Assembly: GCA_051382305.1 (NCBI GenBank)
Contig: JBBCAV010000286.1
Location: 1-26,190, forward strand
Direction of reading: 5' to 3'
Length of the DNA stretch: 26,190 bases
From: Bdellovibrionota bacterium FG-2
GTDB lineage: Bacteria > Bdellovibrionota > UBA1018
In this document: piece after piece, positions 227 through 25,696 of the stretch
How the letters are laid out: the number at the start of each line of letters is the position of its first letter
Position numbering within the stretch: the stretch's first letter is position 1
The notes under the pieces: generated by a model
Told to the model about the DNA's origin: nothing
Database searches by the model: none
The model's input: only the letters and a program-made list of their open reading frames with translations
Made by a program: the position numbers and the translations under genes

Positions 227-249
227 ATGGCGGAGAGGGAGGGATTTGA
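227..249 (-). repeat. att site: 23-bp copy of the tRNA-Ser 3' end (distal boundary of island 1)
   Basis: ATGGCGGAGAGGGAGGGATTTGA is identical at 227-249 and 19074-19096 (part of the T loop through CCA). Confidence 0.93.
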
Positions 250-1156: not shown

Positions 1157-4100
1157 ATGTTCAAGCACAATTTGCTTACAAGTGTCATCGTAGCTCCTGT
1201 GCTGCTGGTTTTGTCCGCATGTGAATCAACGGTGACGGTGAACGCCACAATCACTTCGCCCTCTAGCACCCCAGCATCAACGGAAGCCGCATCCGCTCCT
1301 TCTGAGCCAGTATCAACGCCAACACCAACCGATACCTCGGCTGCAACTCCCCCTGCAACAACTGATACTGCAATCACAACGCCTGTAGTAGCCGACCCGC
1401 CCGCAGCCCCGACAATAAGCTCGCCGACATTGAGCTATTCAACATCCACAGGAACGACGGGAACATTTGGTGTCGCCATGTCGGTCACGCCTTCGGCTCT
1501 TGATAATGGTGGGGCAGCGATTACAGCATGTGGAATTCAAAACGGGACGACAGCATTGCCGTCGTATTTAAGCGTCGATTCTTCAACCTGTGTGATCTCA
1601 GGAACGCCTACATCAGCATTAGCAGCAACCACCTATTCACTGGTGGCAACTAATTCCGCTGGGACTTCCGCTGCTGCAAGTGTGGCTCTGACCGTGAATG
1701 CTGCTGTTCCTAATCTCAGTTACGCTGCATCTACAGGACTCACAGGAGTAACAGGCAGTGCAATGACCATAACCCCTTCAACTCTCAATGCCAATGGAGC
1801 AGTAATTGCAGCATGTGGAATTAAGGATGGAACGACAGCTCTTCCTGGCTATTTGAGCCTTGCTCCCACGACGTGTGTGATTTCTGGAACTCCAACCAGT
1901 GCTTTGTCAGCTACTCAATACACCCTAGTTGCCACAAATTCAGTTGGAGCCTCATCCAATGCAACAGTTACACTTGCCGCAACGCTCAGCAGTTATTCGG
2001 TCTCGTCAGCAGGCACAAATGTGACGTTAAATCCAAATTCAAGTCAGACCGTAACTTATGGATCATCCCAAGCCATAGTGGTGACTCCCAGCAATGGTTA
2101 TACGACACTTTCATCGGTAGGTGGGACTTGTCCCGCTGGTAGTTGGAGCGGAACCACTTACACCACGGGTGCAGTGACCTCTTCTTGTACGACTTCATTT
2201 TCTGCGACACTCAATAGTTATTCTGTCACGCCATCGACGACGAATGTAACACTGAATCCAAGCGGAGTGCAGAGTGTAAATCACGGATCAACTCTAGCTT
2301 TTACCGTTTCTCCAAGTACTGGATACAATACTTCTTCGTCAGTAGGGGGCACTTGCCCTGCCGGTAGTTGGAATGGGGCCATTTATACAACTGCTGCGAT
2401 AACAAGTTCATGCACCGTTTCCTTTTCAGCAAACATTAATAGTTATTCCGTAACGCCGTCCACATCAAACGTAACATTAAGCCCGAGTGGAGTGCAGTCG
2501 GTCAACTATGGGTCAACCAAAGCTTTTACGGTTACGCCGACGACTGGCTACACAACATCCGCAAGCGTGGGGGGAACTTGTGCTGCCGGGAGTTGGAGCA
2601 GTACAACCTACACGACCGGGACTATTACTGGAGCTTGTAGCGTCTCTTTTTCTGCGAGCATCAATTCATATTCTGTCACGCCATCGACGACGAACGTAAC
2701 TTTGAGTCCGAGTGGTGTGCAGACTGTAAATTATGGCTCCACTAAGGCGTTCACGGTTACGCCGAGTGCGAATTACACGACCTCAAATACAGTGGGTGGC
2801 ACTTGTCCTGCGGGAAGCTGGAGCAGTACAACCTACACCACAGGAGCCATTACTGGAGCATGTACGGTGTCATTTTCAGCATCAATTAATACCTATGCGG
2901 TCACATCTTCGGGAACCAATGTGACTTTGAATCCAAGCACCGTGCAGACAGTGAATTATGGATCGACCCAAGCCTTTACTGTGACTCCGAGTTATGGCTA
3001 TGCAACCTCGCCCAGTGTGGCAGGCACTTGCCCCGCCGGGAGCTGGAGTGGTTTGACCTATACTACGGGAACCATTACAGGGGCGTGTAATATTTCATTC
3101 TCAGCTTCGAATACTACACTCGTGTCGGTTGGTAATAACTCCTGTGCGACAAACGTGAATACGGTTTACTGCTGGGGATATAACCCTGATGGTGAACTAG
3201 GTAATAACTCCACCTCTGATTCGCATACGCCTGTTGAGGTGGTGGGAGTTGGGAACGTTGGCTTCCTTGGGAGTATCATTAGTGTGGCTACCGGTTCCTC
3301 AACCACCTGTGCATTGACTTCCTCAGGAAATGTCTATTGCTGGGGTGACAATAATTCAGGTCAACTCGGAAATGGAAATAACACACTGGGTGGATCAAGC
3401 ACGCCCGTTGAAGTAGAGGGTGTGGGAGGCTCAGGTTACCTCTCAAATATCATCAACCTATCGAACGGAGGTGACACTGCCTGTGCGGTTTCTTCCGCAG
3501 GAAATGTCTATTGTTGGGGAGGTAACGGCTTCGGACAGCTTGGAAATAGTACGTCGTCAGACGGAAGCGTACCTCCAACGCCAACTGATGTATTAACACC
3601 GGTCGAAGTAAAAGGAGTGGGTGGCTCAGGAAATCTCTCAGGCATCGTCAGCGTATCAGCAGGCGGTAGTAGTTACGTCTGTGCTCTCTCTTCCACAGGA
3701 CATGTTTTTTGTTGGGGCGAAAGTGCTTTCGGACAGCTTGGAAATAACTCAACCGACCCACTTCGCATACTTACTCCCGTTGAAGTAGTTGGGGTGGGGG
3801 CTTCGGGTTACCTTTCAAACATCGTCAGCATAACAACTGGCTCCGCTCATACCTGTGCGTTGTCTTCCGCAGGGAATGTCTACTGTTGGGGTGATAATGG
3901 CTACGGTCAACTCGGCAATAACTCAACCGCTCAGGCAAACACCCCCGTCGAAGTGTTAGGTGTGGGCGGCTCTGGCTATCTCTCGGGCATCATAAGTGTG
4001 ACAGCTGGAGGTTCAAATACCTGTGCTCTCGCTTCTTCAGGAAATGTCTATTGCTGGGGTTACAATAACGTAGGACAATTAGGCAACAACACAACTACCG

Positions 4101-5011
4101 AATCACATACTCCTATTGAAGTAAAAGGAGTGGGGAATTCAGGATACCTATCAAGCATAGTTAGCGTGACGACTGGTGGTAGCGAAACTTGTGCAGCTTC
4201 TTCCACAGGAAACCTATATTGCTGGGGATACAATCACTATGGAGCACTCGGCAATAACTCTACAACTGACTCGCACACTCCGGTCGAAGTGGTTGGCGTT
4301 GGAGGTACAGGCTTCCTCTCTGGAATCCAAATAAGCCTTACAATCACAACTAATCTTCGCTTGTGGCTCAGGGCGGACGCCTTGACAAAGAATGATGGCG
4401 ATACAGTCACAACCTGGACAGATTTATCTTCAGCCGGAAATAATGCTACTGCTCCTTCGAGCTTTGAGCCGATCTACAAGACCTCCATAATCAATGGAAA
4501 ACCGATCCTTCGTTTTAATGGTTCAGCAAAAATGGCAACTGCAACTGGAGACGCCCTATCTGACTTCACTGTATTTATAGTTTTCAAAGATACAGGCACT
4601 GCCCCGGCCTACGAAAGACTGCTAGATAAAGACTATATTAATGGGTTTTGGGTCGGGCGAGCAAGTTCCACCGCCAACACATGGGTAGTGGGAGCAGAGA
4701 AGGCAATCTCACCTTGGTATGACGGGTCTGCCACTTTTACTGATGGAACACCTCAAATTCTTACTGCGGTGAGGGATCACACAGGAGTCTCAGGTCCTCT
4801 CATCGCAAATAAAACCACTAGCAATAGCATCAGCATGAGTTCAACGGTTACGAGTACCGCTGTTTATGGGATTGGTGCGTGTTACAACGATGGCGATCCA
4901 TCGCAAAGATTGACTGGTGACATCGCTGAAATTCTTGTGTATTCAGCCGCTCTCTCCGCCGCTGATCAAGCTACAGTGCAAAGCTATCTCATTAGCAAGT
5001 ACGGGCTGTAA
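1157..5011 (+). CDS. Large modular surface lipoprotein: Pro/Thr linker, 2 putative Ig-like repeats, 5 Cys-containing ~75-aa repeats, 7 RCC1 repeats, C-terminal LamG/ConA-like domain
   Basis: AAGGAG RBS and lipobox LSAC. Two LPxYLS...CVISGTPT repeats, five GTC(P/A)AGSW repeats at 225-bp period and seven CWG...G(Q/E/A)LG RCC1 blades. C-terminal LRLWLRAD...WTDLS...GDIAEILVYSAALS...YLISKYGL. Confidence 0.88.
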   Translation: MFKHNLLTSVIVAPVLLVLSACESTVTVNATITSPSSTPASTEAASAPSEPVSTPTPTDTSAATPPATTDTAITTPVVADPPAAPTISSPTLSYSTSTGTTGTFGVAMSVTPSALDNGGAAITACGIQNGTTALPSYLSVDSSTCVISGTPTSALAATTYSLVATNSAGTSAAASVALTVNAAVPNLSYAASTGLTGVTGSAMTITPSTLNANGAVIAACGIKDGTTALPGYLSLAPTTCVISGTPTSALSATQYTLVATNSVGASSNATVTLAATLSSYSVSSAGTNVTLNPNSSQTVTYGSSQAIVVTPSNGYTTLSSVGGTCPAGSWSGTTYTTGAVTSSCTTSFSATLNSYSVTPSTTNVTLNPSGVQSVNHGSTLAFTVSPSTGYNTSSSVGGTCPAGSWNGAIYTTAAITSSCTVSFSANINSYSVTPSTSNVTLSPSGVQSVNYGSTKAFTVTPTTGYTTSASVGGTCAAGSWSSTTYTTGTITGACSVSFSASINSYSVTPSTTNVTLSPSGVQTVNYGSTKAFTVTPSANYTTSNTVGGTCPAGSWSSTTYTTGAITGACTVSFSASINTYAVTSSGTNVTLNPSTVQTVNYGSTQAFTVTPSYGYATSPSVAGTCPAGSWSGLTYTTGTITGACNISFSASNTTLVSVGNNSCATNVNTVYCWGYNPDGELGNNSTSDSHTPVEVVGVGNVGFLGSIISVATGSSTTCALTSSGNVYCWGDNNSGQLGNGNNTLGGSSTPVEVEGVGGSGYLSNIINLSNGGDTACAVSSAGNVYCWGGNGFGQLGNSTSSDGSVPPTPTDVLTPVEVKGVGGSGNLSGIVSVSAGGSSYVCALSSTGHVFCWGESAFGQLGNNSTDPLRILTPVEVVGVGASGYLSNIVSITTGSAHTCALSSAGNVYCWGDNGYGQLGNNSTAQANTPVEVLGVGGSGYLSGIISVTAGGSNTCALASSGNVYCWGYNNVGQLGNNTTTESHTPIEVKGVGNSGYLSSIVSVTTGGSETCAASSTGNLYCWGYNHYGALGNNSTTDSHTPVEVVGVGGTGFLSGIQISLTITTNLRLWLRADALTKNDGDTVTTWTDLSSAGNNATAPSSFEPIYKTSIINGKPILRFNGSAKMATATGDALSDFTVFIVFKDTGTAPAYERLLDKDYINGFWVGRASSTANTWVVGAEKAISPWYDGSATFTDGTPQILTAVRDHTGVSGPLIANKTTSNSISMSSTVTSTAVYGIGACYNDGDPSQRLTGDIAEILVYSAALSAADQATVQSYLISKYGL

Positions 5012-5985: not shown

Positions 5986-6381
5986 ATGAAAAGTAATGGC
6001 GTCCGAGGAGCAAGTATGAGGTCAGCTATCCCGATTAAAGATCTTGAGCAAAAAAATGAAGTAGGATCATCGGTCCACAGATTTCTAATTGCGGTCCAAC
6101 AAACAGTTTATGAATTGATTCCACCTTTCGAAGGCGAGGATGGAGAGGCTCATGTGTATGTTGTTGTTTCTGCGGTAAAATTGAAAATGCGTGCTGGCGC
6201 GCAAGATTTCAGTCTTGAAACATATATTTTCCCCTCAAACAAATCGGGGGAGTTTACTTACTCGGAGCTACCCGGCTCTTCACGGGGAACTCTCAGTCAT
6301 CAGGACGTGTTGGCTTCCATTGGGTATGAAATTCATCAAAACTCAATCAAACTTATAAGAGATTTGCTCAAAGGGAATTAA
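5986..6381 (+). CDS. Hypothetical protein
   Basis: 131-aa ORF with RBS-like sequences before ATG 5986 and ATG 6016, and globular-looking composition. No family assigned. Confidence 0.6.
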   Translation: MKSNGVRGASMRSAIPIKDLEQKNEVGSSVHRFLIAVQQTVYELIPPFEGEDGEAHVYVVVSAVKLKMRAGAQDFSLETYIFPSNKSGEFTYSELPGSSRGTLSHQDVLASIGYEIHQNSIKLIRDLLKGN

Positions 6382-6443
6382 TGAATTGCGTTTTAATTGG
6401 CCGAGTTGTGGGTGCGCGTTTGCGAGCGTGAAGTGGTGGGTTT

Positions 6444-6677
6444 TTATTTTTTTGTGTCGAAAGCGTGTACTTGCTTATTTCTCAGCTGTGTAAGCCCCTG
6501 TTCGAGAGCTCTGGCGATAATGTCATTTTTTCGATAAAGATATTCACCGTCCTTTACTTGTTTATTGTAGAGTTCCGTGACCTCTGTAACAAGCAAGTTG
6601 AGTCGATCCTTCCGTTCCGCTGTGATACGAAACGAGAACTGTGGGTAATCGGACGGTTTTCTTCCATTTTTGCGCAT
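6444..6677 (-). CDS. Small DNA-binding protein, possibly ribbon-helix-helix/Arc-like (probable start ATG 6677)
   Basis: PQFSFRITAERKDRL (strand plus helix) and RKNDIIARALEQGL (second helix). Divergent from the nuclease operon. Confidence 0.55.
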   Translation of the reverse strand: MRKNGRKPSDYPQFSFRITAERKDRLNLLVTEVTELYNKQVKDGEYLYRKNDIIARALEQGLTQLRNKQVHAFDTKK

Positions 6678-6805
6678 CTCACTTCTCCCTAGCTTCTCAA
6701 GCAGTAGAAACCTGCACGTTTTTGAATCGTACCTCTGCAAGTAGTTGATTGCAAACAAATATTGAGTCGCAATAGATGACTTGCACTATTGTCATGCAAT
6801 TATGC

Positions 6806-6834
6806 TAGACAATGTCATTGCGGTGCGCTATGAT
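6806..6834 (+). promoter_or_regulatory. Sigma70-type promoter of the nuclease-helicase operon
   Basis: TAGACA (6806-6811), 17-bp spacer, TATGAT (6829-6834); predicted transcription start near 6840. Confidence 0.6.
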
Positions 6835-6838
6835 TGGT

Positions 6839-6896
6839 AAATAGAGTTGTCGTATTCTACGGCAAATAGAGTTGTCGTAGAATACGGCAAATAGAG
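6839..6896 (+). repeat. 2.3 copies of a 25-bp tandem repeat with internal palindrome
   Basis: AAATAGAGTTGTCGTATTCTACGGC (6839-6863), AAATAGAGTTGTCGTAGAATACGGC (6864-6888), AAATAGAG (6889-6896, running into the GAGGAG RBS). Confidence 0.9.
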
Positions 6897-6906
6897 GAGA
6901 TGCTAA

Positions 6907-8382
6907 TTGTCAAAGTTCATTACTAAAAGCCTACACAAGCTTTTTTGCCGCTGTCCAAGGCTGTTTGCGCTCACCCAAAAGCGCCCTGATCTTAAAACTC
7001 CAGGCGATGACACAATGGCCCGCTATTTGTCAAAGCAAGGAGATCGGGTGGCGCGAATTCTTCAGGATCAGCTCATTCGGGATGGGGCAATTGAAATCCC
7101 CCCATATCCTGCAAGACAGGCACTCAAGCTCACGCGCTCCGCCCTAGGTCGTGGCCTTGGGGTCGTCGAGGGCAGTTTTGCTGCGGAGGATGCCTTTGTT
7201 AGAGTAGATGGATATCTCACCGCCAACGGGGGCGAGTTGATTGAAATCAAATCTAGCACGAAGATAAAAGACGATCACGTTGACGACGTGGCCTTTCAGG
7301 TTGGCGTGCTCCGAAATAGCGGCATCGCCGTTGAGCGGGCAACATTGGCTCACATCAATCCAGGGTTTGTCCTAAAACCAGCGAAGAGCAATTTTAAGAA
7401 CTTTATCACCCGAATCGACATGACGGCACAAGCCGATACCCGGCTAGCGACTATTCCAAAGGATCTCGCCGATATCGCTAAGATCGCGGCTGCACGCGGA
7501 CTCCCTCGGCGCCACATTGGACCTCACTGTTACGCACCTTACCCTTGTCCATTTGCGGCGCAATGTCTGGGTGATACTGCGCGGGATTCAGTTTTGAACT
7601 TACGTCGAGCGGGTGAAATTAAGTACGAGCTTCATCAGCATGGTATCCGAAAGCTTTCTGAAATTCCCGCGCACATCAAGCTAACGCCTTTTCAGCAGAT
7701 CCAAGCCAAAGCCGAAGCGCAGGGGGCGCCCATCATCAATGAGGAAAAGCTCAGGGCGTTTCTTAAGACGGTGAAGTATCCATATTGGTTTTTGGATTTT
7801 GAAAGCTCTGTCGAAGCCATTCCCCGCCACGTTGGAACAAAGCCCTATTCGCAAGTCCCGTTTCAAGCGTCGATTCACTTACAGCGAAAAGCCGGTTCCA
7901 AACTTGAACACTTTGAGTTCCTGCACGATCAATCATCCGACCCTCGCCCGGCTCTGGCTTGCTTTCTAGCAAAGACCATTGGTAGCACCGGATCCATCAT
8001 TGCGTATCACGCAAGTTACGAACGCGGACGCATTCAAGAAATGATCGCGCTTGGTGGTAGGGCAACGTCAGCACTGGAATCCATCGCCAATCGCATAGTC
8101 GATCTCGAGGTTCCCTTTGATCGCGGTTGGTACGTCGATTCGGCATTCAAAGGAAGTACCAGCATCAAGAATATTCTCCCTCTGCTCGTGCCGGACCTAT
8201 CCTACGACAGCTTACCAATCCGAGATGGTGCCACAGCCTACCTGCAATATCTCGAAATGATTTCTGCAAAAACAAGTAAGCAGAAGAGAGCCGCGATTCG
8301 GAAGGCGCTGCTCAGCTATTGCGAACTCGACACGCTTGCGATGGTCAAGATCCTTTCGTTCTTAATGGAGGTAGTAATATGA
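6907..8382 (+). CDS. DUF2779-domain protein: Cas4-like PD-(D/E)XK nuclease fused to an RNase H-fold/DEDD-like domain
   Basis: N-terminal CPR plus the later cluster HCYAPYPCPFAAQC (Fe-S-like arrangement), and RVDG...LIEIKS. C-terminal LDFES...PYSQVPFQASIH, SIKNILP and YCELDTLAM. GAGGAG RBS before the TTG start. Confidence 0.85.
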   Translation: MSKFITKSLHKLFCRCPRLFALTQKRPDLKTPGDDTMARYLSKQGDRVARILQDQLIRDGAIEIPPYPARQALKLTRSALGRGLGVVEGSFAAEDAFVRVDGYLTANGGELIEIKSSTKIKDDHVDDVAFQVGVLRNSGIAVERATLAHINPGFVLKPAKSNFKNFITRIDMTAQADTRLATIPKDLADIAKIAAARGLPRRHIGPHCYAPYPCPFAAQCLGDTARDSVLNLRRAGEIKYELHQHGIRKLSEIPAHIKLTPFQQIQAKAEAQGAPIINEEKLRAFLKTVKYPYWFLDFESSVEAIPRHVGTKPYSQVPFQASIHLQRKAGSKLEHFEFLHDQSSDPRPALACFLAKTIGSTGSIIAYHASYERGRIQEMIALGGRATSALESIANRIVDLEVPFDRGWYVDSAFKGSTSIKNILPLLVPDLSYDSLPIRDGATAYLQYLEMISAKTSKQKRAAIRKALLSYCELDTLAMVKILSFLMEVVI

Positions 8383-8726
8383 GTCAATTTAAACAAGTTC
8401 ACAAAGTCCCGCAGAAGCCCGACCGGTTAATGGTGGTTTACAAAATCACTTTCCCCAATGGGAAAATATACGTAGGTCAGGATAGAATCAATACTTTGAC
8501 CTACTTTGGTAGCATGGACAGCGGTTTTGTAGAGCGAGACTTCTCGCGGGAACAACAGCACGATTTTTCGATAAGAAAAGCGGTTCTTTGGGAGTCTGAG
8601 ACCGCTTCTCATAAAGAATTAAATGAAAAGGAAATTGAGTTCATTTACGCCTACCGGTCGAACAATCCTGCAATTGGCTATAATCAGCGTCCAAAACTTT
8701 CGTTTTTAGAGGAGATTAGAAAGTGA
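8379..8726 (+). CDS. GIY-YIG nuclease family protein (probable start ATG 8379, 115 aa)
   Basis: VVYKITFPNGKIYVGQD, conserved E in LNEKEIEFI, and C-terminal GYN. ATGA overlap with the upstream stop and a GGAGG RBS. Confidence 0.85.
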   Translation: MSQFKQVHKVPQKPDRLMVVYKITFPNGKIYVGQDRINTLTYFGSMDSGFVERDFSREQQHDFSIRKAVLWESETASHKELNEKEIEFIYAYRSNNPAIGYNQRPKLSFLEEIRK

Positions 8727-10180
8727 ATTACCATAAACAAGTTATTAAAGCTGCACATGAGGTATTGAGTTTTGTCAAAGGTGGCTACAGTTTGATAGCC
8801 TGTCAAGCCTCTCCTCAAACGGGGAAGACTGAACTGATCGAATGCGCCTATGAGTTACTTCAACGTGAATTTCCCGACTCTCTCGGGCTCTATGTTTGCG
8901 CCCACAACCACCTCGATTTTGTTGATCAGAACTTTCCACGTCTCGAACACCTCGAATCGAAAGACTTGTATTGCCTCGGGCTTCGACAAAGGCGCCGCAG
9001 TTTAGTGGGAAAGAAACCGCTCAGTTCCTTTAAGAATACCCCTGTCGTTGTTTTTTTTGATGAAGATCACTTTGGCGACGGAAGCGAGCAAACGATTCAC
9101 TCTTGGCTAAGGACCAATAACCTCTGCCCCGGAAGAAAAATTTTCCTAATCGGAGTTTCAGCAACCGGCTTTACGATTATTAAGCGAGCTGGAAAAGCCG
9201 TAGTACGGATGCAATTGTCTGACATGCCGATCTACAAATCCATCACCTACATGTTTGAACACGGTCACATCAAGAACTCGACACCAATGCTCGTCGGCCA
9301 TGCAGAAGAGCGTCGTGTCGATCAATCAAACGAGGCGTTTCAACAACTGAACCACCTGATTAAAGGTGGTATCGGCGGGTATGCCATTATACGTGTTAAC
9401 GGCAAAGATGCGCCGATCCTTGACGCTAAACTCAAGCGACTACATCAAAATAGAGTACATGTCCGCCATTGGAATCAGGCTAATCAAATTTCGAATCCAG
9501 AAGCATATTTTTCACAAAAACGGGGCGTGTTTGTTGTTGTGATTGTGCAGCAAAAGGCGAGGATGGGGAATACCATCCCGACGCAGCATTTGAAGCTCGT
9601 CTACGAACATTCGCCTAAACCCACTGTTGCAACCGTAGCACAGGGACTGCTCGGCCGGTGCTGCGGACATGGAAAGCTCACCCATAAAGTCACGGTTTAC
9701 TCTCATCGAAACCACGCTGAAGCCTATATGTTGTTTGAAACTGGATATCTGGATGACTTCTTCACTTATTTAGAAGCTCACGGCCTAAGAGCTAGTCAAC
9801 GTGCAAAACTCGCTGCTACGGAGATGCAGTCGTACGAAGGAAAACTTCCAGGATACGCAGGGATTCAACGCTCAGAAATTGTCGAATCTGTTCTCAATGA
9901 CTTGAGAAAACGGCACGGATTGACGCCACCGGTAGTGTGCGCCGCCGTCAGGCGCTGGACCACCAATAAGAATAAGGAAGAGCGTCACCGCTACACACAG
10001 GCTATCGCCCTTGGGGACAACCCCACCTTGACTAAGCCCAATCGCGAGGCGGGCAGCTTGTCTATTTATTTGGATAACCGGAAGGATCGACACCACCTCT
10101 ACTACGCGTATCGGAGCAACAAGGTGCTTGTGAAGGCAGATTTGGTGGCGTCCGATGATTCTTTCTACTCGGAGATATAA
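8723..10180 (+). CDS. Divergent superfamily 2 helicase/ATPase (DExH-like)
   Basis: Walker A-like SPQTGKT, Walker B FFDEDH, motif III SAT, motif VI-like QGLLGRCCG. GTGA overlap with the upstream gene and an AGGAG RBS. Confidence 0.78.
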   Translation: MNYHKQVIKAAHEVLSFVKGGYSLIACQASPQTGKTELIECAYELLQREFPDSLGLYVCAHNHLDFVDQNFPRLEHLESKDLYCLGLRQRRRSLVGKKPLSSFKNTPVVVFFDEDHFGDGSEQTIHSWLRTNNLCPGRKIFLIGVSATGFTIIKRAGKAVVRMQLSDMPIYKSITYMFEHGHIKNSTPMLVGHAEERRVDQSNEAFQQLNHLIKGGIGGYAIIRVNGKDAPILDAKLKRLHQNRVHVRHWNQANQISNPEAYFSQKRGVFVVVIVQQKARMGNTIPTQHLKLVYEHSPKPTVATVAQGLLGRCCGHGKLTHKVTVYSHRNHAEAYMLFETGYLDDFFTYLEAHGLRASQRAKLAATEMQSYEGKLPGYAGIQRSEIVESVLNDLRKRHGLTPPVVCAAVRRWTTNKNKEERHRYTQAIALGDNPTLTKPNREAGSLSIYLDNRKDRHHLYYAYRSNKVLVKADLVASDDSFYSEI

Positions 10181-10729
10181 ATGAAAAATATTCCACAAGC
10201 CCATGATGCCATCAATTTCCAGAGAAGCCCAATCACCACTTCGATTAAGCTTGGAAATAGTCCGATTGACTTCGTCCACTGCACTGGCGACCACACCATC
10301 GCCGTGTCCGGGCAAATTACTTACATTCTGGGAGCCTTTTTCCCAGGGACACCGCGACCTATGGCTAAATCTAATTTGCTTAAGGCTCTTGAAAAATCGA
10401 GGCCGCGCACGTTCAACTCCATTTCTGAATTTGACTCCGCGATTGGAAAAATTAGGTTTTTCGCAATGAGAACCAATCAACAAAAGAAGATTAGCTTCAT
10501 TGAAATTGATGGAGTCTCTCACTCAGCGAGCGCTTACAGAAACGGGCTACTTGTAATTGGCACGAATGAAGGTGAATTGCGGTTTTTCAGTTTTTGGCCC
10601 AATTCGATTCATTTGATTTTATCGCTTGAGAATGAGGTACGACTTCTAGGTACAAAAAATGGCCTGAATGCTCGCAAAGTAACTCGAAATGTTACATCCA
10701 TAATAAGTGGTGGAAAGCCTAAAAGTTAA
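10181..10729 (+). CDS. Hypothetical protein, paralog of the next gene
   Basis: Starts directly after the helicase stop. Shares PITTS(I/V)K(L/I)GxSPID and YRNGLLVIGTxxGELRFxSFWPNxIHLILSLENE with 10731-11390. Confidence 0.8.
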   Translation: MKNIPQAHDAINFQRSPITTSIKLGNSPIDFVHCTGDHTIAVSGQITYILGAFFPGTPRPMAKSNLLKALEKSRPRTFNSISEFDSAIGKIRFFAMRTNQQKKISFIEIDGVSHSASAYRNGLLVIGTNEGELRFFSFWPNSIHLILSLENEVRLLGTKNGLNARKVTRNVTSIISGGKPKS

Positions 10730-10730
10730 T

Positions 10731-11390
10731 ATGCGTTTTAAAACACACGAAGCCATCAGCTTTAAAATAAATCCAATCACCACCTCTGTGAAGATTGGAA
10801 GTAGCCCGATTGACTACATCTACTGCACGAGTAATTTTACAATCGCGGTAGCGGGGCATAAATCGTTTCTGTTAGGAACCTATTGCCCAGGCAAGCCGAG
10901 ACGAGCGAAAAAAGATGAGGTCGATCTTGCTAAAAAGCAAAGGAGGCCCACATCATTCAGATGTACACCATCGCTGATTCCTTATGAGGGCAAGCCAACT
11001 TGCACCATGACGCTTCGGCGCAAAGGCGGGGCGCCATATAATCCCGCGTTGACTGGCTTTACGCCTAAGCAAGGTGACATATTTAAAACGCCCTTCTTTC
11101 TTGATGGCGATGATCATCTCTTTTGGGCTAGCCCGGATGAAGTCCGGGTTGTCCGAATTAATCCACAACGCAGCTACGGCGCGACCACTTTTTCGATTCC
11201 CGGATTGATGCCGTCGGCGCTTTCCTACAGAAATGGCCTTCTGGTTATCGGCACGATGGATGGCGAACTGCGGTTCATGAGTTTTTGGCCGAATGCGATT
11301 CATTTAATTTTATCTCTGGAGAATGAGCTTTATCGTCAACAAAAATGTGTGCAGCTAAAAAAGCAAAAATGGAGGACCTATGAAAAATGA
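10731..11390 (+). CDS. Hypothetical protein, paralog of the previous gene (probable start ATG 10731)
   Basis: Same two conserved blocks with a longer, unrelated middle. The ATG lies 1 bp after the upstream stop and aligns with the paralog's N-terminus. Confidence 0.8.
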   Translation: MRFKTHEAISFKINPITTSVKIGSSPIDYIYCTSNFTIAVAGHKSFLLGTYCPGKPRRAKKDEVDLAKKQRRPTSFRCTPSLIPYEGKPTCTMTLRRKGGAPYNPALTGFTPKQGDIFKTPFFLDGDDHLFWASPDEVRVVRINPQRSYGATTFSIPGLMPSALSYRNGLLVIGTMDGELRFMSFWPNAIHLILSLENELYRQQKCVQLKKQKWRTYEK

Positions 11391-11634
11391 AAGCAGTGGA
11401 GCCGACTCTGATGACTTGGCTCGCGTTATTGCACAAATGTTGGCGAATGCCGCGAAAGAAACGTTTTCTCTGAATGAGGCTGCGGAATATCTCAGGATCT
11501 CCCCAGACTCGGTTAAATACTACTGCAAGCGCCAGAGGGAACTATCACACGCGAACCTTGGAGGCGTGCTTGTATTTAGAAAACGTGATCTCGATGAATT
11601 TTTGGAGAAAAAATTGAAAAGGGGTTTTGTGTGA
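11380..11634 (+). CDS. Excisionase-like HTH DNA-binding protein (HTH_17)
   Basis: TFSLNEAAEYLRISPDSVKYY...LGGVLVFRKRDLDEFL; GGAGG RBS; upstream of a tyrosine recombinase. Confidence 0.85.
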   Translation: MKNESSGADSDDLARVIAQMLANAAKETFSLNEAAEYLRISPDSVKYYCKRQRELSHANLGGVLVFRKRDLDEFLEKKLKRGFV

Positions 11635-11790
11635 TGACTGGAAAAAGTTGCACTTTGCAGGCGGGCTGAAAGCCTGATGCTTTGATTTTGGGTAGTCTGA
11701 CCTAGTTCAAATGAACGATTTATATGGCGGCCATATAACTGACGAACATCAAGCCTCTTAATTAAAGGAGGCCTAAAAATAGGAGAATAT

Positions 11791-13245
11791 ATGAGAATCG
11801 TACATGTTGATAGGGCCGAGTTTCAGAATACTAGCGTTGTTTACAAGGATCCGGGTGTCATCGAGAAGAGCAAAATTCACGTTGGAAGAAAGAATCAGGT
11901 GCGCGTGTACTATGTTTTACCAAATGGGGTTCAAAATTATTTTTACAAAAGCGACGCTGCTCTTGCTGATAGTCCCAAGCTTCAAAAACAATATTTGGAC
12001 GAATTTAAGTGCCTACTCAGGAACGGTTGTTTTCCTAAAAATGCGATATCCAAAATGGCAGGCACTGCAAGGGATGTTTATGACTGGGAGTATATAAAGG
12101 AACTTTACTTCGGAGCGCTAAATCAAGGGAGAAGAAAGAAGGCAAAGAGTGTAATCGAAGCCCAAACCTCTTATTTTGTGCGCTTTTCGGATTACTTCAA
12201 ATCAAGAGGACGGGACCGGATTACAGAATTGACAGATGATGACCTAGACGCCTTCCAAAGGGACGCCGAGGACTTTAAGAATAGGTTTACGGGACATCCT
12301 CTCAGTGCCAATACCATTCACATGTTAAAAAATATTTTTAAGAGTGTCCTTCTTGCGGTCAAAGAGGCGCGGATTCCCCTCTTGTGCGATTCCGCTCGCA
12401 TCGATTTGAATGTGTACAAAAAGGGGGAGGTGGATCGATTTTTCAATGTGCGCGATGTCGTTATTCCTATGGACATTCTTGAAGCCATCGAGAATTTTTG
12501 TTTCAGTTCGGCCGAGACAGGACCCAACATTAAGGAGATTGTGGCTTTTGAAGCAAAGATGGGACTTCGCCCCGGAGAACTTTACCACCTAGGCGAAGAA
12601 AACCTCTTCTATATAAGTGAGGGGAGGCAGTTTCAGTCCAAAGTAGATTTCAATTGCATAAGGATTCGTGATTTGCCCAATTGTCCAACCAAGCACGGCA
12701 TGGGCTTTAAACCAAAGCGACAGAGCAGTTACAGGGACATTCCCTTGGACGACCGCGCCATAGCTTTCATCAAGACACAGTTAGCAAAACACAAAAATGA
12801 TATTATTTGCGGAAGGACAAGGCTCTCGAACGGCGAATTGAGCTATGTGGAATATCGTTTTTTATTCCCTTACTGGTCGAAGCATCGAAAGAGGTGGCTG
12901 CGGCCTGATGATGAAATGCCGAAAGCATTCACCAAAGCCTTGAATGCTGTGGCTGCGGCCGCCGGGATAGAGCTTGCGACAAAATACAAACTCTATGACT
13001 TTCGAAGAGTGGCTAATTTGTGGCTTCAGAATTTTCTAGGTATGAATTCAGGAGACGCCGCCTACTTTTTGGGCCATTCTGAGAAAATCAATAAGCACTC
13101 CTATATGAGTGTCACCAACAGGCAAGCTACTCAAGGAAAGTGGGCGCACAGGCGCCTAAAAGAGAAGATCCAATCTATCAAGGAATCAAGTGAGTATTCC
13201 ATTGCCCTATCGTCGGCCGAGAATCGGGAAATAGAAGCAGCATAA
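11791..13245 (+). CDS. Tyrosine recombinase/integrase (internal to island 1)
   Basis: GLRPGEL (catalytic R), LYDFRR (HxxR variant), LGHS and the downstream Y in KHSY; AGGAG RBS. Confidence 0.85.
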   Translation: MRIVHVDRAEFQNTSVVYKDPGVIEKSKIHVGRKNQVRVYYVLPNGVQNYFYKSDAALADSPKLQKQYLDEFKCLLRNGCFPKNAISKMAGTARDVYDWEYIKELYFGALNQGRRKKAKSVIEAQTSYFVRFSDYFKSRGRDRITELTDDDLDAFQRDAEDFKNRFTGHPLSANTIHMLKNIFKSVLLAVKEARIPLLCDSARIDLNVYKKGEVDRFFNVRDVVIPMDILEAIENFCFSSAETGPNIKEIVAFEAKMGLRPGELYHLGEENLFYISEGRQFQSKVDFNCIRIRDLPNCPTKHGMGFKPKRQSSYRDIPLDDRAIAFIKTQLAKHKNDIICGRTRLSNGELSYVEYRFLFPYWSKHRKRWLRPDDEMPKAFTKALNAVAAAAGIELATKYKLYDFRRVANLWLQNFLGMNSGDAAYFLGHSEKINKHSYMSVTNRQATQGKWAHRRLKEKIQSIKESSEYSIALSSAENREIEAA

Positions 13246-13266
13246 CGGGCCGAACTGCACTTTTTG

Positions 13267-13303
13267 AAAGGGGTCAGCAAAAAAATGCTGACCCCTTTTT
13301 TTT
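13267..13303 (+). terminator. Rho-independent terminator of the integrase gene
   Basis: Stem GGGGTCAGCA (13270-13279) / TGCTGACCCC (13286-13295), A6 loop, T8 tail. Confidence 0.9.
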
Positions 13304-13617
13304 GTGCGCCCAGCATGGGCGATGCGCTAAGGGGTGCTCCGTAAAAATGCGGATAGTCCCCTGCGGATCTCAATTCCGGGAACCGCTAGCCAAATCTCAA
13401 GGTGTCCATCGTGAGATGGAATCTGGAGGAAGGAAGACTGCATACCGGGAGCTGGTGGCTAGGGGACAGCAGCAATCGCCTTCCCAAATTCGTACTTTGA
13501 TGACCTGGGGCTCACTCGATTGGGATCTTAATTTTCGGAACCGCCGGATGCCGGTCGGCACGTCCGGTGGTGTGGGAGGACGGGGGAAGAATATATTTCT
13601 TCCCCCTCCTATCTAAT
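13304..13617 (+). mobile_element. Internally deleted (RT-less) group IIC intron, 314 nt
   Basis: 5' end GTGCGCCCAGCATGGGCG immediately follows a terminator. Domain V is AACCGCCGGATGCCGGTCGGCACGTCCGGTGGT (CGC triad). Domain VI is GGGAGG...CCTCCT with bulged A 13611 and an AT end. A residual IEP C-terminus AIAFPNSYFDDLGLTRLGS* precedes domain V. Confidence 0.88.
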
Positions 13618-19072: not shown

Positions 19073-19164
<92 letters not shown>

Positions 19165-19195
19165 GTACTACAAAATCAGTTGCGAAGTCATGTGC

Positions 19196-25654: not shown

Positions 25655-25696
25655 TTTCGAGGCGTGCGGATTCAACCGCTCTCCCACCTCTCCGTA
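25655..25696 (-). repeat. att site: displaced 5' half of tRNA-Ser (3 leader nt through the anticodon loop)
   Basis: TTTCGAGGCGTGCGGATTCAACCGCTCTCCCACCTCTCCGTA is identical to 19126-19167. Confidence 0.95.

Follow-up and report, generated by a model that had tools for sequence, protein, structure and literature searches.

Two-gene cassettes that couple a nuclease to a superfamily 2 (SF2) helicase are known from defence islands in the form of Hachiman, whose HamAB logic, as described in PMC12278908, has a motor tracking along foreign or damaged DNA and a nuclease receiving it. A comparable coupling is Bacillus subtilis MrfAB, in which a helicase (MrfA) is co-encoded with a DEDDh exonuclease (MrfB), according to PMC11194089. 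DUF2779 proteins are described in PMC13621843 as uncharacterised, with a Cas4-like domain and a DEDDh-like exonuclease, as likely double nucleases with connections to immunity, and as quasi-essential in a minimal Mycoplasma cell; within the RNase H-like superfamily, PMC3985635 assigns them to the 3′-5′ exonuclease clade. Here, we analyse a gene cluster at positions 6806-11634 of a 26,190-nucleotide stretch from Bdellovibrionota bacterium FG-2 (contig JBBCAV010000286.1; hereafter, the window). Its conserved unit consists of two genes, which encode a DUF2779 nuclease (G1) and an SF2 ATPase (G3) and are joined in some loci by a small divergent regulator-like gene.

The pair resembles Hachiman in being a nuclease plus SF2 motor cassette, but its nuclease is a DUF2779 protein (Cas4-like plus DEDD-like) instead of the DUF1837 protein HamA, and its motor has 485 amino acids (aa). 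G1 matched neither the PADLOC HamA model nor Pfam DUF1837 at E ≤ 0.1, G3 did not match the HamB model at the same threshold, and none of the 12 ORFs homologous to G3 did so at 1e-5, whereas the HamA/HamB models do match SngC of a related locus (L001), an ordinary DEAD helicase, at 4e-17. MrfAB differs from the pair in acting in chromosomal repair rather than riding as island cargo, in showing no sequence match, and in lacking the Cas4-like domain that G1 adds. Of the papers retrieved on DUF2779, PF11074 or Cas4-like-helicase defence, none names the pair in its title or the opening of its abstract.

A preliminary description of the window, made from its sequence, had listed six genes behind one promoter on a tRNA island, with all junctions overlapping or nearly so: a DUF2779 protein with Cas4-like and DEDD-like domains, a GIY-YIG nuclease (G2), an SF2-like helicase, two paralogous proteins (G4 and G5) and an Xis-like helix-turn-helix (HTH) protein (G6). 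This inventory was borne out by the analyses below, as was the statement that the combination matches no named system, since PADLOC returned just weak Cas4 and mad1-type HTH matches. The further proposal that all six genes form a single module did not hold.

The DUF2779 nuclease and its partner ATPase

G1 matched Pfam PF11074 over aa 295-419 (E 2.7e-36; 125 bits against a cut-off of 23.3), and its N-terminal half matched the PADLOC Cas4 model over aa 6-221 (E 1.6e-6). Judging from its residues, the N-terminal half is a Cas4/RecB-like Fe-S domain of the PD-(D/E)XK type with four cysteines: C16, D101, E113, K115, Q131, C208, C214 and C220 are conserved in all 28 aligned DUF2779 proteins. This alignment, which also served for the trees, comprised eight ATPase-linked and 20 unlinked proteins; the partial sequences of L005 and L010 were excluded, and the unlinked proteins were chosen by high score and long contigs from the 117 genomes, of 401 sampled in the phylum, that have the DUF2779 domain. 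The C-terminal half gave a weak match to Pfam RNase_H_2 (0.043) and appears to be RNase H/DEDD-like, that is, similar to a DEDD-type 3′-5′ exonuclease. The four acidic residues D297, E299, E372 and D475 are present in G1, each being kept in 20/20 unpaired and 7/8 paired proteins; their assignment draws on PMC13621843 and PMC3985635 and on our own reading of the alignment. A DUF2779 profile found no match among PDB sequences.

By motif and predicted fold, G3 is a highly divergent SF2 motor that lies outside every curated family. Thirteen residues are invariant in 19 sequences (Q32, G34, K35, T36, D113, E114, H116, S146, A147, T148, Q307, G311 and R312), and we take them to represent helicase motifs I (GKT), II (DExH), III (SAT) and VI (QxxGR). 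The AF2 model (pLDDT 88, pTM 0.80) folds aa 1 to ~350 into two RecA-like domains and has a C-terminal domain of ~130 aa to which no known fold could be assigned. Its best fold matches were FANCM (Z 17.8; 313 residues aligned, rmsd 4.2), Ino80 (17.6) and RadD (17.4), followed by DRH-1, Mfd, RecG and the type ISP enzyme LlaBIII, with 197 chains at Z ≥ 8; Foldseek placed RadD on top (E 2.1e-7). FANCM, Ino80, RadD, Mfd, RecG and LlaBIII share the two RecA-like domains with G3 (Z 15.6-17.8), but SF2 translocases and helicases are just 10-14% identical to it and leave its C-terminal 130 aa unmatched. Because the top rows are tied within ~2 Z units, no SF2 subfamily can be singled out. G3 had no Pfam, NCBIfam or PADLOC match at 0.1, including the DEAD, Helicase_C and ResIII helicase models, and its profile retrieved nothing from PDB sequences (best E 0.19). 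Four uncharacterised giant-virus proteins also match the full G3 model (E 2.2e-20 to 1.7e-15, TM up to 0.63; next viral helicase, 3.8e-9), their sources including Pyramimonas orientalis virus, a Marseillevirus and a Hyperionvirus.

The G3 family is small, with 25 proteins in a collection of 5.8 billion, and it occurs in 1/116 genomes of the window's order and in two of the 401 phylum genomes sampled. It was not found in 50,697 phage records or 72,556 plasmid records, and none of 16 pattern matches in IMG/VR viral contigs was confirmed. The rarity and patchiness of the pair are as expected for accessory genes. In L004, L010, L011 and L005, the ATPase is encoded by two overlapping ORFs of ~170 and 340 aa, divided between the RecA-like domains; as this arrangement is present on contigs of different origin, it is probably a genuine gene split and no sequencing error.

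Scans of genomes and metagenome contigs with the G3 family yielded 13 loci, whose named sources (Bacteriovoracaceae, Bacteriovorax and Oligoflexus) all belong to the Bdellovibrionota. When 14 window proteins were compared with these loci by tblastn, a G1 homolog was found directly upstream of the G3 homolog in nine of the 13 (L001, L002, L004, L005, L006, L007, L009, L010 and L011); L004 and L010, identical in the alignment figures, were counted as one locus, and the upstream sequence of L008 is too short. Homologs of G2, G4 and G5 were found in 0/13 loci each, and a profile search for G5 agreed. The slot that G2 occupies in the window, between the core genes, is closed by a 4-nucleotide (nt) gene overlap in L006 and L007, holds no gene in L001 and is reduced to short gaps in L002, L004 and L011. 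An unrelated 122-aa ORF fills it in L008 and L009; we considered this ORF as a GIY-YIG counterpart and rejected it, as the two did not align at E ≤ 100. The order ATPase, HTH_17 gene, integrase recurs in the window, L001 and L002, without an intervening gene in the latter two. Nuclease and helicase homologs thus co-occur elsewhere, beside defence systems, but this does not extend to the GIY-YIG gene and the paralogs, and the HTH_17 gene co-occurs solely with the downstream integrase (L001 and L002). With G2, G4 and G5 absent and HTH_17 tied to the integrase, the conserved unit is therefore the pair; the other four of the six genes are local additions or island housekeeping.

Phylogenies agree with this linkage. 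In a maximum-likelihood tree, the eight linked DUF2779 proteins form one split against the 20 unlinked ones (UFBoot 100, SH-aLRT 99), and the same three subgroups (window and L006; L004 and L011; L001, L002, L007 and L009) appear in the DUF2779 and ATPase trees, so that the two genes have diversified together. Unpaired DUF2779 proteins, including Mycoplasma MMSYN1_0389, belong to the same domain family and have the same nuclease and cysteine residues as G1, but they are common, fall outside the paired split and, in the 20 cases examined, are encoded without a helicase neighbour: neither G3-like proteins nor Pfam helicases were found among the two genes on each flank.

Defence neighbours and the proposed function of the pair

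PADLOC models were run at E ≤ 1e-5 on 110 of 120 selected neighbouring ORFs (omitted: two each of L005 and L008, and six L010 duplicates of L004). Of the seven pair loci for which flanking sequence exists, five have known defence systems at a distance of at most 8 kb. In L001, the Shango genes SngA/SngB/SngC are directly upstream of the pair and IetA/IetS are downstream; L002 has a type IIG restriction-modification enzyme near the pair; L004 has AbiEi and, by Pfam, RES-Xre; L006 has type I methylase and specificity subunits and a candidate PDC-S14; and L011 has type I restriction and specificity genes and PrrC. A Pycsar cyclase adjoins the ATPase of L003, a distant locus with the ATPase only; L012 and L013 gave no clear defence neighbour in this search. 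An integrase is found no more than ~4 kb downstream of the pair in the window, L001, L002, L009 and L011.

By association with islands and defence neighbours, an indirect kind of evidence, the pair is a credible defence candidate. Our preferred reading, to which we give an even chance, is that it would constitute an undescribed two-gene nuclease-motor defence module of Bdellovibrionota islands, similar to Hachiman in its way of working and not a member of it. The cassette sits at the integrase end of integrative islands; its motor would recognise and load on foreign or damaged DNA, translocate, and feed or license that DNA for the partner DUF2779 nuclease, with which it would form a complex. 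A more elaborate version, which we put forward tentatively and regard as rather less probable, is a two-component immune system in which an SF2 translocase drives a Cas4-like plus DEDD-like nuclease, is co-transcribed with the excision genes, and may thereby place defence and island escape under one shared signal, unpaired DUF2779 proteins then being stand-alone immune nucleases. Cas4-like and DEDD-like enzymes otherwise trim CRISPR prespacers. Among the unlinked DUF2779 loci examined (L060-L079), roughly eight of 20 have neighbours such as McrBC (L060, L068), GmrSD (L069), toxin-antitoxin genes (L062, L064, L077) or an integrase (L072), and some of the remainder lie in housekeeping surroundings; this is a hint that the entire family may be immunity-related.

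Several observations weigh against a defence module. The distant G3 homologs of L003, L012 and L013 (30-34% identity) have no DUF2779 neighbour; the same PADLOC search showed no clear defence neighbour in L007 and L009, and PADLOC models run on the window proteins recognised no defence system on the window's own island. Since the neighbouring systems ride the same islands, their association with the pair may reflect general island cargo. Three of the four DEDD-like acidic residues are gone in L007 and one in L009, so the DEDD-like domain is dispensable in some loci. Finally, no strong terminator separates the pair from the xis-like and integrase genes in the window, and the succession of ATPase, HTH_17 and integrase in the window, L001 and L002 fits an island life cycle equally well.

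An island life-cycle module is accordingly the first alternative: expressed with xis and int from the regulated promoter, the pair might act on the DNA of the island itself, in trimming its ends, starting its replication or recombining it once excised, or might attack competitors at the same attachment site, and would have no part in host defence. Beyond gene order, it gains from the one promoter-like site before the cluster and the one strong terminator past the integrase, from the divergent regulator-like gene that L002 also has, and from the processing of DNA ends by Cas4-type nucleases in spacer integration (PMC13621843). We nevertheless consider it unlikely, as the pair occurs without an adjacent HTH_17-integrase block in L006, L007 and L004/L010, and as in L001 and L002 the pair retains 36-41% identity and the integrases just 28-29%. 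In addition, no convincing attachment repeats mark out a small inner element, from the regulator-like gene to the integrase, in the window, L002 or L001, and Pfam, NCBIfam and PHROG scans of the window proteins found no replication initiator or primase.

The pair could also be a horizontally carried DNA-repair unit that, like MrfAB, would remove particular lesions. According to PMC13621843, a Mycoplasma DUF2779 protein has MrfB as the best structural match of its C-terminal half; MrfA and MrfB are a co-encoded helicase and exonuclease (PMC11194089), and the repair motors RadD, FANCM, Mfd and RecG are among the best fold matches of G3. However, a housekeeping repair pathway would not be expected on islands and in just 2/401 phylum genomes, L007 has lost DEDD-like residues, and no Pfam model matches G3, including those expected of MrfA-type helicases; we deem this explanation distinctly improbable. 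Least probable of all is one obligate system of six components, for which the tight or overlapping junctions throughout and the single promoter-like site speak, but which is hard to reconcile with GIY-YIG and half-propeller genes in 0/13 related loci, with a core-gene slot that is empty in L001, L006 and L007 and taken up by an unrelated ORF in L008/L009, and with the one G5 homolog whose surroundings were inspected (G104/L028), which is encoded apart from the pair. The preliminary description had itself named a lack of co-occurrence as grounds for refutation, and in none of the 13 loci is the helicase homolog accompanied by a GIY-YIG gene or by either paralog.

Additional genes, transcription signals and the tRNA-Ser island

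The features of the window are collected in Table 1. G2 lacked a Pfam match at 0.1 and a PDB sequence match, its matches to PHROG homing endonucleases being at 0.003-0.02. Its identification as a GIY-YIG nuclease relies on the NCBI name of several homologs (GIY-YIG nuclease family protein) and on residues Y21, Y31, R66, E85 and N102, which are invariant in 16 sequences and presumably correspond to the Y, Y, R, E and N of the GIY-YIG catalytic motif. The search for homologs gave 1147 matches among 1150 candidates, of ~93 aa and with 57-71% identity among the 120 listed. The family spans Chloroflexota, cyanobacteria, Bipolaricaulota and a Methanolobus archaeon in more than 1100 clusters, and a precomputed Pfam domain is present on 0/120 listed homologs. 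It is unusual for a family to be conserved to this degree across domains of life. G2 has the look of a selfish, widely travelling mini-nuclease gene that was inserted between the core genes.

Table 1. Features of the window discussed in the text
Feature	Position	Strand	Basis or remark
Left direct repeat	227..249	.	exact copy of 19074-19096 = tRNA-Ser 3′ end; blastn-short 23/23, E 3.8e-8
Small divergent regulator-like gene	6444..6758	-	tblastn homologs in L002, L004
Promoter-like site TAGACA-17-TATGAT	6806..6834	+	10/12 matches
25-nt tandem repeat, ~2.5 copies	6836..6899	+	repeat family D5; between -10 hexamer and ribosome-binding site
G1, DUF2779 protein, core gene, 491 aa	6907..8382	+	Pfam PF11074
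G2, stand-alone mini GIY-YIG nuclease	8379..8726	+	homologs suggest start 8430
G3, SF2 DExH ATPase, core gene, 485 aa	8723..10180	+	alignment motifs and fold
G4, shortened G5 paralog, 182 aa	10181..10729	+	~50 middle residues missing
G5, ~four-blade partial beta-propeller with C-terminal helix	10731..11390	+	AF2 model
G6, HTH_17 (AlpA/excisionase-type), 84 aa	11380..11634	+	PF12728
G7, putative divergent tyrosine integrase, 484 aa	11791..13245	+	phrog_1 integrase; absent from the preliminary description
Intrinsic terminator-like hairpin	13266..13299	+	14 pairs and T run; first strong terminator past the 6806 promoter
tRNA-Ser	19075..19164	-

G4 is a paralog of G5 (38% identity, E 2e-41), and neither protein matched a Pfam propeller model above cut-off. 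The AF2 model of G5, built from seven sequences (pLDDT 75), retrieved beta-propellers in all of its best 50 fold rows, with the WD40 domain of Cdc4 on top (Z 14.9, 165 residues, rmsd 3.2); that two half-propellers pair into a full ring is speculation. G4 and G5 belong to an orphan family with just five other representatives among 1.84 billion proteins, one of them from a Bdellovibrionota genome, and with matches in 2/401 phylum genomes. The homolog of G104/L028, a member of the window's taxonomic family, lies on a different mobile element with a serine integrase and a DnaB-like helicase and without a DUF2779-ATPase pair, and is flanked there by a propeller-like protein and an RmuC-family nuclease. 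Proteins of ~680 aa with an HTH_3 motif follow the pair in L009 (6294-8321) and the RmuC gene beside the G5 homolog in G104/L028 (5704-7755); they are 32% identical (E 1e-117), which suggests a common island backbone.

G6 is part of the island recombination module, together with the putative tyrosine integrase G7. It matched PF12728 with 43.9 bits (cut-off 27), in keeping with its description as Xis-like, and TIGR01764 (excise) with 20.9 bits, below the cut-off of 28.8; homologs at 53% identity, followed by the integrase, are found in L001 and L002. G7 matched the phrog_1 integrase at E 2.1e-14, without a Pfam Phage_integrase match at 0.1, and has homologs of 28-29% identity at the same position in these two loci. 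A match of G7 aa 9-64 to designed 'Cake' beta-propellers in the PDB (E 7.8e-7), in which no single stretch passes alone, is probably a compositional or repeat artefact. Upstream of the pair, the regulator-like gene recurs at its divergent position in two loci, with homologs of 65% (L002) and 32% (L004) identity. Because they cover aa 26-93, its likely start is at 6677. By eye, the protein appears to be of the ribbon-helix-helix type; searches with it against Pfam, PADLOC, NCBIfam and PDB sequences gave no match.

The plus-strand ORFs of G2 and G5 can also be read from 8319 and 10707, respectively. The G1/G2 junction is ATGA, a 4-nt overlap if G2 starts at 8379 and a 47-nt gap if it starts at 8430, and the G2/G3 junction is GTGA, again overlapping by 4 nt. 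G3 and G4 are spaced by 0 nt and G4 and G5 by 1 nt, G5 and G6 overlap by 11 nt, and G7 starts 156 nt past G6. The promoter-like site is the sole one on the plus strand in 6300-13500; the total of six such sites is not above chance (shuffled mean, 8.4). Inspection by eye shows these hexamers again ahead of the DUF2779 genes of L002 and L004, together with an upstream TTGCA...TGCAA palindrome. The tandem repeat harbours a 19-bp palindrome/hairpin at 6847-6890 (RNA fold of -29.1 kcal/mol, z -7.4; 0/200 shuffles as stable), a candidate operator or 5′ leader stem; the repeat and hairpin were not seen upstream in L002, L004 or L006. As the sole strong terminator follows the integrase, the transcription unit probably runs past 11634, where the preliminary description had ended it, and transcription of the pair probably extends into the xis-like and integrase genes of the island.

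The window is a complete contig from a metagenome-assembled genome that is 85% complete. The cluster is enclosed by an 18.8-kb tRNA-Ser island bounded by exact 23-nt direct repeats (227-249 and 19074-19096), and a second integrase, besides G7, adjoins the tRNA-Ser gene. Another exact direct repeat, of 42 nt (19126-19167 and 25655-25696), spans the 5′ part of the tRNA-Ser gene and encloses an element of ~6.5 kb that has a separate integrase as well as an HTH_17 gene, and that also encodes a resolvase, a DUF559 protein and a collagen-repeat protein; islands are therefore present on both flanks of the tRNA. In the sister genome G043, the cluster is absent and the tRNA-Ser gene has other content. 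Since no protein of that region is shared with the window, it offers no empty-site comparison.

Two further observations concern the window as a whole. Inside the repeat-bounded island, 1157-5011 encodes a protein of 1284 aa that contains both RCC1 repeats and Ig-like domains, and a short group II intron remnant without an ORF (13304-13617) lies directly 3′ of the T run of the integrase terminator. The remnant matched Rfam Intron_gpII at 13539-13617 (37.9 bits, gathering 40; E 8.9e-6) and group-II-D1D4-3 at 13405-13477 (E 6e-4), and the sister genome carries, on a different contig, a copy of 13292-13437 at 95% identity. Class C group II introns typically insert after terminators.

Significance for the DUF2779 family and for predatory bacteria

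Tight gene junctions were no marker of a conserved system at this locus, where just two of the six genes travel together. DUF2779 is widespread and has no assigned function, and a lineage locked to a motor in defence islands provides a clonable handle on the function of the family. Should the pair restrict phages or plasmids, it would extend the known nuclease-helicase systems by one whose components have no sequence relation to theirs. Its source is predatory bacteria, whose immunity has been little studied.

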